Source of the DNA: an uncultured Clostridia bacterium
Lineage (GTDB): Bacteria; Bacillota; Clostridia; TANB77; CAG-508
Assembly: GCA_947632145.1 (NCBI GenBank)
Contig: CANRNW010000002.1
Coordinates: 14,615-78,614, forward strand
Direction of reading: 5' to 3'
DNA length: 64,000 nucleotides
Numbering within the stretch: the first letter of the stretch is position 1; every line of letters starts with the position of its first letter. The notes under the pieces were generated by a model. The model saw nothing but the letters and a program-made list of their open reading frames with translations, was not told the origin of the DNA and did no database searches. Both the position numbers and the translations under genes were made by a program. This document shows, piece after piece, positions 15,601 through 16,194 of the stretch.

Positions 15601-15970
15601 TTGTCATATTTACTTGCATTTCAGACTGATATACTCCATCATTTAGCATCATACAAGCCATTTTACCATTATTGTAACTGTTACACCATTCTTCATCATC
15701 TTCTGTTGTTATTTGCCAAGAACCATCTTTATATTTTATTGGTATCATTCCTGCAGATATTTTAGGACTATTAGGTTTTTCTGTCACTTGATTGGTTATA
15801 TCTAAAGATACATCTCCTATTTTAGTTGTATATAATCCCATTGCAACTTGATTTATATTATTTATTTTATTAACTCTATTTGTTTTTATAAGCATAATTA
15901 TACTTGCTAATAATAAAAATATAATTAGCACTATAAATAATATTTTTTTAAAACTATTTGACTTTTTCAT
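6652..15970 (-). CDS. Giant (about 3105 aa) N-terminally anchored surface protein with about ten LCCL-like modules; read through a +1 break at CGG 7924-7922
   Basis: ATG at 15970 lies 9 nt after AGGAG. The signal anchor is KKILFIVLIIFLLLASIIMLI. The repeating unit is a WYPYGT beta-sandwich, then [IYPV.VTG..SG..YGT..Y...S.I..AA.H.GLV...E...YIKIV..P.GGY..S..NG..S] (the LCCL-like pattern), then an Ig/FN3-like KYYYSIDD module. Track ORFs 7910-16009 and 6652-7938 overlap mid-module. The joined length is 1 mod 3. Confidence 0.75.
7922..7924 (-). other. In-frame CGG at a +1 frame break (giant surface protein)
   Basis: Zero frame: GAA AGA AAC CGG AAG TAC GAG TAG. Dropping the C gives AAC GGA AGT ACG AGT AGA TGG, i.e. 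...IDERN-G-STSRWYTTSSKTYTT..., which continues the repeat module. Confidence 0.7.
12657..13203. repeat. Near-identical 547-bp internal repeat, copy A (period 879 bp)
   Basis: Matches 13536-14082 with only a handful of mismatches. The plus-strand antisense ORFs 12544-12978 / 13549-13857 and 13021-13215 / 13900-14085 in the track are near-identical, offset by 879. Confidence 0.9.
13536..14082. repeat. Near-identical 547-bp internal repeat, copy B
   Basis: See copy A. The encoded peptide from IEYDGKIWYPYNTQIKITYAEDMTNL through ESP(A/V)GGYKSSTRNGITS is duplicated almost exactly. Confidence 0.9.
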
Positions 15971-16002
15971 ACTTATCATTTCTCCTATAATATTTAAACA
16001 AA

Positions 16003-16055
16003 AAAACACAATTTATTTATGTGTATCAAAAATACACATAAATAAATTGTGTTTT
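16003..16055 (-). terminator. Perfect 21-24 bp hairpin plus U-tract in the 5' leader of the giant gene (candidate attenuator)
   Basis: acacaatttatttatgtgtat (16006-16026), loop caaaa, atacacataaataaattgtgt (16032-16052). In minus sense it is followed by TTTTTTGTTT. It lies 36-82 nt upstream of the ATG at 15970. Confidence 0.55.
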
Positions 16056-16084
16056 ATCTATGTTTCTATTTATTTTTTTATTAA

Positions 16085-16171
16085 TTATGTGTGTGTGTGT
16101 GTGTGTGTGTGTGTGTGTGTGTGTGTGTGTGTGTGTGTGTGTACAGCCACAAGGGTTTTAGCGTTTGCCAT
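16085..16171 (-). CDS. Candidate leader peptide MANAKTLVAV(HT)9, encoded across the microsatellite
   Basis: ATG at 16171, 7 nt after AAGGAGAA (16186-16179). The (CA)27 tract reads as CAC ACA x9, then TAA at 16087-16085. Confidence 0.35.
   Translation of the reverse strand: MANAKTLVAVHTHTHTHTHTHTHTHTHT
16088..16142. repeat. Dinucleotide microsatellite (TG)27 / (CA)27
   Basis: 55 nt of uninterrupted alternating t/g read directly from the sequence, 118-172 nt upstream of the giant gene start. Confidence 0.98.
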
Positions 16172-16194
16172 AATTTTATTCTCCTTTGTATTGC

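Follow-up and report, generated by a model that had tools for sequence, protein, structure and literature searches.

A (CA)27 tract in a leader ORF upstream of a giant LCCL gene: a candidate phase-variable transcription attenuator with relatives in uncultured Clostridia and phages

The 64,000-nucleotide stretch of DNA analysed here (64 kb, hereafter the window) derives from an uncultured Clostridia bacterium (contig CANRNW010000002.1). It carries a short leader open reading frame (ORF), a long hairpin and a giant gene, in this order and with all of their features on the minus strand. The giant gene encodes a protein with an N-terminal hydrophobic anchor and at least seven LCCL domains, and the leader ORF contains a perfect (CA)27 tract. 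An initial annotation, made from the sequence alone, had proposed that slippage in this tract and leader-peptide attenuation at the hairpin together switch the giant gene. The findings described below support this interpretation, and we give somewhat better than an even chance to the region being a phase-variable leader-peptide (upstream ORF) transcription attenuator.

The leader ORF starts with the ATG at 16171, 7 nt behind the ribosome-binding site (RBS) AAAGGAGAA, and reads MANAKTLVAV(HT)9 over 28 codons up to the TAA at 16087-16085. The giant gene has its own RBS and starts at the ATG at 15970, downstream of the hairpin. Tandem Repeats Finder (TRF) reported the tract as a perfect array (16088-16142, 27.5 copies, 100% matches), the sole dinucleotide array in the 64 kb, and in CA units it corresponds to (CA)27 at 16141-16088. 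Whichever frame is used, (CA)n encodes only His-Thr. With n = 27, the leader ends at the TAA mentioned above; with n = 28, it reads ...HN and ends at the TAA at 16083-16081; and with n = 26 or 29, it reads ...IINKKINRNIDKTQFIYVYF and ends at the TGA at 16028-16026, at the loop or the top of the right arm of the hairpin. The two short-frame stops lie 26 and 22 nt upstream of the hairpin, the distance from the n = 27 stop to the hairpin base being 26-30 nt, depending on where the stem begins. The initial annotation had listed the same leader, tract and giant-gene start, and its figures for 26, 27, 28 and 29 units were exact.

The hairpin was identified by two analyses. The terminator scan found 20 pairs and a 7-nt loop (16052-16006), with five overlapping calls as compared to 0.1 expected in shuffles, and RNAfold gave 25 pairs (16055-16003) at -28.1 to -29.6 kcal/mol (z = -8.95), with none of 200 shuffles folding equally well. 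These results confirm the long perfect hairpin with a T-run that had been placed between the leader and the giant gene; the top 25 of the inverted-repeat tool did not include it, and the evidence for it is the scan and the folding. Rfam gave nothing at the gathering threshold in the leader region, and only spurious miRNA-hairpin and other sub-threshold matches in E-value mode. The promoter upstream of the leader was the only sigma-70-like promoter found by the scan between the upstream gene and the giant-gene ATG on the same strand, and no promoter-like site was found between the CA repeat and that ATG on the minus strand. In addition, the gap between the T-run end and the giant-gene RBS is only ~10 nt. 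Together, the sole upstream promoter and this short gap indicate that the giant gene must be transcribed through the hairpin.

Table 1. Features of the leader, hairpin and giant-gene region in the window, listed in the direction of transcription.
Feature	Position	Strand	Remark
Leader promoter, -35 TTGCAA, 17-nt spacer, -10 TATATT	16317..16345	-	sigma-70-like scan
GC-rich 5' leader hairpin 1, TGTAGGGGCGTATGATTGCGCCC	16241..16263	-	motif family also before adk, uvrA and in related loci
GC-rich 5' leader hairpin 2, TGTAGGGGTCGGCGCCTCGACGACCC	16195..16220	-	
Leader-ORF RBS AAAGGAGAA	16179..16187	-	kept in all full modules; GGAG-type sites in phage cassettes
Leader ORF, 28 codons + TAA, MANAKTLVAV(HT)9	16085..16171	-	
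Conserved 21-nt cassette 5' flank, GCTAAAACCCTTGTGGCTGTA	16142..16162	-	common to 11 other Clostridia modules and 24 phage cassettes
(CA)27 tract	16088..16141	-	homologous tracts n = 6-16
Early stops for two of three frames: TAA 16087-16085 (n = 27), TAA 16083-16081 (n = 28)	16081..16087	-	
ACATAGATAAA motif, TAG + TAA in two frames, complementary to upper left arm	16053..16063	-	possible weak antiterminator, -8.3 kcal/mol
Predicted terminator hairpin, 25 bp, -28 kcal/mol; long-frame TGA 16028-16026 at loop/right-arm top	16003..16055	-	
T-run TTTTTTTGTTT	15996..16006	-	3' of hairpin
RBS AGGAGA (15986-15981) + ATG (15970) of giant gene	15968..15986	-	
Giant multi-LCCL gene, 2686 aa, N-terminal membrane anchor + family-specific N-terminal domain	7910..15970	-	
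Giant-gene continuation in other frame, 428-aa LCCL ORF	6652..7938	-	apparent frameshift near 7935

Twelve further modules with this architecture, i.e., promoter, GC hairpins, AAAGGAGAA-ATG, ~10 codons, (CA)n, spacer, hairpin and surface-protein gene, were found in related uncultured Clostridia. A search of a genome collection with the N-terminus of the giant protein revealed two metagenome-assembled genomes (MAGs) of uncultured Clostridia, which carry the same module before a homologous gene with ~60% identity. A metagenome scan with the hairpin-top sequence gave seven more copies, six of them from one sample and at six different loci, and protein-guided look-ups added those of L028, L029 and L051. 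The 13 terminator-type modules are thus those of the window, L001, L002, L005, L011-L013, L015-L017, L028, L029 and L051 (the L028 contig starts inside the CA run, and the L051 module was read by eye).

The hairpin and the T-run are kept in all 13 modules. RNAalifold analysis of the aligned modules showed compensatory changes at 8 of 23 hairpin pairs and predicted the hairpin as the sole conserved structure, with the repeat region in no conserved pairing. All uncut copies carry AAAGGAGAA, the ATG and 29-30 nt from there to the tract (32 nt in L011, where the tract is interrupted), and share (CA)n, an A-rich spacer with an invariant AAACATAGA, a 20-25-bp hairpin and the T-run. A promoter of the form TTGMAA-17-TATATT or TAAAAT lies upstream of 11 of the 12 full modules, the exception being L001, whose module directly adjoins the stop codon of a galE-like gene. 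Between the T-run and the next RBS of L028 and L011, there is nothing or a GC hairpin only.

The frame layout of the window recurs as well. In all 13 modules, two frames stop 3-16 nt past the repeat, and the third reaches the hairpin base, the loop or beyond. One short frame ends in ..(L/H)Y(V/I)(D/A)* or T*/H* and the other in ..(F/I)M*, HN* or LI*, and the third-frame stops lie in ACATAGATRA at the hairpin base, in a TGA or TAA at the loop or, in L028, past the loop into the right arm. Nine modules are in the first short frame, one (L002) in the second and two (L005 and L029) in the long frame, with L028 not scorable. Modules with the same flank have n = 9 (L029), 10 (L051) and 11 (L002), one per frame. 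CAC accounts for 24% of the His codons in the window genes vs 100% in the uninterrupted repeats, and this lack of synonymous variation indicates that the repeat is maintained as nucleotides, not as a peptide. Two candidate constraints on the tract were rejected: a repeat number that is always a multiple of 3, with the peptide frame conserved, is contradicted by L002 (11), L029 (9), L051 (10) and the phage sets described below, and a CRP-like TGTG-N6-CACA at the junction of flank and repeat is contradicted by the TGTG half, which varies among cassettes.

A search with AACCNTTGNNNNTNTA(CA)5 identified 24 IMG/VR viral contigs (L068-L091), all with an RBS and ATG at the right distance (e.g., L074:6951-6998). 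Several of these contigs differ only in the tract. L074 and L091, from different metagenomes, aligned over 9836 nt with 0 mismatches and one gap (n = 16 vs 15), and L084 and L088, also from different metagenomes, over 6148 nt with 0 mismatches and one gap (n = 14 vs 11). L073 and L085 have identical 200-nt flanks (n = 9 vs 11), and eight samplings of one phage locus gave n = 8, 8, 9, at least 10 (the contig ends in the tract), 11, 13, 14 and 14. Phage contigs that are identical except for the CA count indicate that the tract of this cassette is hypermutable.

The proposed mechanism is based on the anatomy of the region, its conservation, the covariation of the hairpin and the hypermutability of the repeat in homologous cassettes. 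Transcription would proceed from the promoter at 16345-16317 through the two GC-rich 5' hairpins and the well-initiated short ORF with (CA)27. Replication slippage would alter the CA count and hence the frame in which the ribosome leaves the repeat. For n = 27 or 28 (modulo 3), the ribosome would meet a TAA within 0-2 codons and be released 22-30 nt before the hairpin, in which case the 25-bp hairpin and U-run would form and most transcripts would end before the giant gene (low or OFF). For n = 26, 29 and so on, translation would go on for 20 codons to the TGA at the loop, the ribosome on the left arm would block the terminator, and the polymerase would read into the giant LCCL surface-protein gene (ON). 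It is by analogy that we infer termination at the hairpin, its relief by the ribosome and which frame is ON. The genes downstream of the Clostridia modules encode adhesin-like surface proteins (LCCL, Glug, DUF285 and LRR), and tail-protein and methyltransferase genes are among the neighbouring genes in phages; all of these are typical contingency genes.

The combination of slippage with leader attenuation is not new, because the principle was shown for Streptococcus gallolyticus in 2014 (Danne et al., 2014; PMC3894217). In the pil1 and pil3 loci of that species, a leader-peptide gene with GCAGA repeats precedes a terminator. Low-expressing cells have a leader that stops 28-39 nt short of the terminator, high-expressing variants have one that stops within or beside it, and the model correctly predicted the behaviour of mutants with a changed start codon, with three stops or with the terminator deleted (PMC3894217). 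The pil1 leader also works in Lactococcus lactis. The window has the traits of this type: a sole upstream promoter, a repeat in a short ORF, a predicted terminator, and short vs hairpin-reaching frames.

The likeness to pil1 and pil3 extends to the order of promoter, leader ORF with RBS, ATG and a simple repeat, terminator, and RBS of a surface-structure gene; to the hairpin energies (-18.7 and -28.2 kcal/mol for pil1 and pil3, -28 for the window); to the distance between the default-frame stop and the hairpin (28-39 nt, and 22-40 nt in the Clostridia modules); to frame-shifted leaders that stop next to, within or beyond the hairpin; and to the presence of the device at more than one locus per genome. 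Conversely, there is no sequence homology, and the repeat is a CA dinucleotide (n = 6-27) instead of a pentanucleotide. One frame in three is long in the Clostridia modules, whereas both out-of-frame classes lengthen the peptide in pil1. Unlike pil1 and pil3, the Clostridia modules have an extra invariant ACAUAGA element and GC-rich 5' hairpins, and they serve an adhesin-like multigene family, share their first half with phages and are known from sequence alone. Literature searches for repeats inside a leader-peptide gene followed by a terminator returned the S. gallolyticus work only, and nothing on a (CA)n or His-Thr cassette. The principle is thus known, and what appears to be new here is a non-homologous dinucleotide variant with one predicted ON class in three, a multigene family under its control, and a cassette shared with phages.

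Three other systems share parts of the design. In Clostridioides difficile cwpV, an invertible element lies between promoter and gene, and its OFF orientation forms a leader terminator. As in the window, a Clostridia surface protein is thereby under stochastic control through terminator formation in a 5' leader, but the cwpV switch is a site-specific DNA inversion by a recombinase, without repeat slippage or a leader peptide. Classical in-frame phase variation is exemplified by the CTCTT repeats in the signal-peptide region of Neisseria opa genes and by phase-variable mod methyltransferases. Here, too, slippage in a 5' coding repeat switches the frame and a surface-protein multigene family switches locus by locus, and two phage contigs (L069 and L090) use the (CA)n cassette in exactly this way, on a DNA methyltransferase. 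Unlike in opa and mod, the window repeat lies in a separate upstream ORF, and its effect must pass through the terminator. Haemophilus influenzae hmw1 has heptamer repeats in its 5'-untranslated region (5'-UTR) and a hairpin processed by RNase III (PMC12721329). It resembles the window in having a transcribed repeat in the leader of a large adhesin gene, and its output requires a long leader hairpin; unlike in the window, the hmw1 repeats form one hairpin arm and expression is graded with repeat number, without a logic of leader ORF and terminator.

If the proposed mechanism is correct, the modules would represent a second, independently evolved case of repeat-driven leader-peptide attenuation. 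This case would be the first to use a dinucleotide repeat and the first to come from uncultured gut Clostridia, which suggests that the device is a widely applicable solution and not peculiar to streptococci. The modules would also provide independent stochastic switches for a whole family of giant adhesin-like proteins. The phages appear to use the cassette to switch methyltransferase as well as tail-fibre and lysis-region genes, which would bear on host range and epigenetic state. In practice, (CA)n tracts after a start codon could serve to find contingency genes in metagenomes, and the module would be a compact, tunable stochastic switch for synthetic biology.

Several observations weigh against the attenuator interpretation. 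Of the 12 scorable modules, nine share one short frame, and an n of 9 is common to four paralogues, a greater uniformity than expected from free switching. Two short frames and one long frame also arise in 20-40% of the spacer shuffles of a single module (non-significant), and it is only by recurring among diverged spacers that this layout carries weight. Contigs from the same strain or from near-identical ones end before the repeat (L003, with identical sequence, and L049, with a 95% identical neighbouring gene). The giant gene is frameshifted in this assembly, near 7935 at GATGAAAGAAACC, possibly by an assembly error, as a pseudogene or as a second switch. RNA polymerase in Firmicutes frequently runs ahead of the ribosome, a situation unfavourable to coupling-based attenuation. 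The S. gallolyticus case indicates that attenuation of the coupling type can work nevertheless (PMC3894217). Finally, a conserved alternative pairing of ACAUAGA with UCUAUGU could complicate or even invert the logic.

This last point concerns an element for which the model of the initial annotation does not account. The block AAACATAGA is invariant in 10 of 10 aligned modules and shows the highest conservation apart from the hairpin top and the RBS. In all ten, the left arm contains a predicted pairing partner of ACAUAGA, either UCUAUGU or UUUAUGU (-6 to -8 kcal/mol). The element may act as a weak antiterminator that determines basal read-through, as a stop-codon trap, or in both ways. A trp-like four-segment attenuator was rejected, as the post-repeat pairing of UUAUGU with ACAUAGA reaches only 0 to -2 kcal/mol.

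These properties leave some room for a switch with the parts and slippage described above and a different coupling, in which the frame decides the masking of ACAUAGA, or mRNA stability or RNase III processing of the duplex. The ON frame or the number of expression levels would then differ from the initial prediction. Besides the conservation and pairing of the element, the placement of the long-frame stops in three places (a TAG or TGA within the motif, or the loop) is compatible with such a coupling, and a 20-25-bp duplex is long enough for RNase III. In hmw1, a 5'-UTR hairpin cut by this enzyme governs repeat-dependent expression (PMC12721329). However, the ACAUAGA and left-arm segments are both invariant, so that their pairing lacks support from covariation; the terminator has 3-4 times the stability of the alternative helix, outside of which the terminator top can nucleate; and the element has no segment-1 partner, the 1:2 pairing amounting to the 0 to -2 kcal/mol given above. 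We therefore regard a different coupling as rather unlikely.

The composition of the tracts bears on whether the repeat acts through its frame at all. A functional His-Thr peptide, a (CA)n platform for an RNA-binding protein (e.g., Hfq) or Rho loading, with the hairpin merely a leaky terminator, would be difficult to reconcile with the zero synonymous variation in uninterrupted tracts, with N-terminal codons that are read in two frames across cassettes, with the occurrence of all three frames among close homologues, with tract lengths that range from 6 to 27, or with the in-frame methyltransferase fusion in phages, which makes sense for frame switching only. Such roles would agree with the strict conservation of the leader RBS and ATG, with the prediction that the G-free (CA)n is unstructured, and with the ..(L/H)Y(V/I)D* ending of many modules in the commonest frame, an ending that the window and L001 lack. 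Overall, an action of the repeat outside its frame appears improbable.

The genomic setting raises the question of whether the region is active. The genes upstream of the leader are rpoA, rplQ, metK and a 117-aa GT2-like gene. In related species (L032-L048 and L050), a DUF3792 gene directly follows the 117-aa gene, and both the leader and the giant gene are absent there. Their absence from the syntenic rpoA-rplQ-metK-117-aa regions indicates an accessory insertion or island in this lineage. The region could accordingly be an inactive remnant, i.e., a phage-derived cassette with a terminator that was carried in with the island, ahead of a giant gene that is a decaying pseudogene, with no present regulatory role. 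In addition to the syntenic absence, the frameshift near 7935 and the near identity of the 5' part of the window cassette to that of a phage group point in this direction. Against it, the full architecture is present at 13 loci in several lineages, with compensatory hairpin changes and intact repeats; a perfect 54-nt tract would decay without selection, as it partly has in L011; and the frameshift may be an assembly error. Thus, we consider that there is little likelihood of a remnant.

It is highly improbable that starvation relieves termination through ribosomes that stall at the His and Thr codons (nine of each), as in a classical amino-acid-sensing attenuator. In favour of such a device, the leader is rich in two amino acids and followed by a terminator, and Rfam yields a weak, non-significant Phe_leader match (E = 1.3). 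Against it, no alternative structure joins the repeat to the terminator, which alone is conserved; the sole alternative helix, formed by ACAUAGA and the left arm, is located 25-37 nt past the repeat and has no segment-1 partner; stalling in the tract would leave the ribosome 30-80 nt away from the hairpin; the products of the downstream genes are surface proteins (LCCL, Glug, LRR and DUF285) instead of enzymes of His or Thr biosynthesis; and (CA)n can be read only as His-Thr, whichever frame is used. This composition is a consequence of the repeat and does not serve for sensing.

The phage copies differ from the Clostridia modules in what follows the tract. None of the 24 contigs contains the ACATAGA-hairpin part, and neither the hairpin-top nor the motif-plus-hairpin pattern matched in viral contigs, the terminator wiring being seen in non-viral (metagenome and MAG) contigs only. 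L069 and L090 have the cassette as the in-frame N-terminus of the DNA methyltransferase. The cassette of the L076/L078/L084 group is flanked by a tail-protein gene and by arrays of small genes, and one of these small genes matches tail and tail-fibre families; that of L070 lies between a holin gene and a gene for an M23 endolysin-like peptidase. For the large neighbouring genes in L074 and L082, PHROGs gave no match. The alternative frames of L074/L091 and the L078 group have their stops early, in the loop of a hairpin, or at or across the start codon that follows (TAATG, ATGAGTAA); the stops at or across this codon indicate translational coupling. The long frame of the L070 group ends 14 nt beyond the ATG of the next gene.

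The start of the window cassette (AAAGGAGAATAAAATTATG...GCTAAAACCCTTGTGGCTGTA) is nearly identical to that of one phage group. The 21-nt flank GCTAAAACCCTTGTGGCTGTA is conserved as nucleotides even though two different reading frames are used across cassettes, which hints at an additional function, e.g., in initiation or slippage. We consider it evenly balanced whether these copies represent an undescribed portable start cassette for phase variation (RBS, ATG, ~21-nt flank and (CA)n) that circulates between the chromosomes of gut Clostridia and phages, with at least three wirings. In the first, the cassette would be fused in frame to a gene, as for the phage DNA methyltransferase. In the second, it would form an upstream ORF in translational coupling with the next gene, its alternative frames stopping early or else at or across the start codon of that gene, as in the phage tail and lysis regions. 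In the third, it would form an upstream ORF whose alternative frame invades a terminator, as in the chromosomal adhesin-like multigene family and the window.

The genes downstream of the Clostridia modules share a family-specific N-terminal anchor and domain, and 80 family members carry Glug, DUF285, LRR or Listeria-Bacteroides repeats, suggesting that they are adhesin-like surface proteins. The family N-terminal domain had no matches in PHROGs and Pfam. Exceptions among the downstream genes are smc in L017 and, in L005, a small secreted protein, followed by a reverse transcriptase and then a family member. This 345-aa reverse transcriptase (RVT_1, IGNYTSQ) lies between the module-controlled gene and the large surface-protein gene (oriented L005, 2518-3555 and 3763-6055). 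Its IGNYTSQ motif is reminiscent of diversity-generating retroelements, and it may represent a second diversification system for the surface-protein family. For the family member of L058 (L058:1340-1510; also L059-L067), which occurs in many samples, the conserved promoter and a GC hairpin lie right before the RBS, without ORF, repeat or terminator. It thus appears to be a natural unattenuated version, which suggests that the attenuator is an optional insert.

Short-read assemblies break at the module (at the ends of L003 and L049 and the starts of L028 and L052-L057), either before the ORF, in the CA run or in the hairpin loop, and six Logan contigs for P0131 start within the hairpin loop. 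Contig-based surveys would therefore under-count the module.

The GC-rich 5' hairpins of the leader belong to a motif, TGTAGGGG-stem-loop-CCC, that stands out in this AT-rich genome. The window contains four copies (16263-16241, 16220-16195, 23234-23209 before adk and 41227-41205 before uvrA) as compared to 0.5 expected, and many occur in L002, L011-L017, L029, L051 and L058. The TGTAGGGG hairpins are always on the coding strand, right after promoters or right before RBSs, and are possibly a 5' stabiliser or a processing site. Other RNA features of the window, at the Rfam gathering threshold, are an RNase P RNA (2208-2558), a T-box leader (52914-53146) and a tRNA (1366-1438), all on the minus strand. 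Two other very long perfect hairpins lie at 49370-49431 (29-nt arms) and 47267-47312 (22-nt arms).

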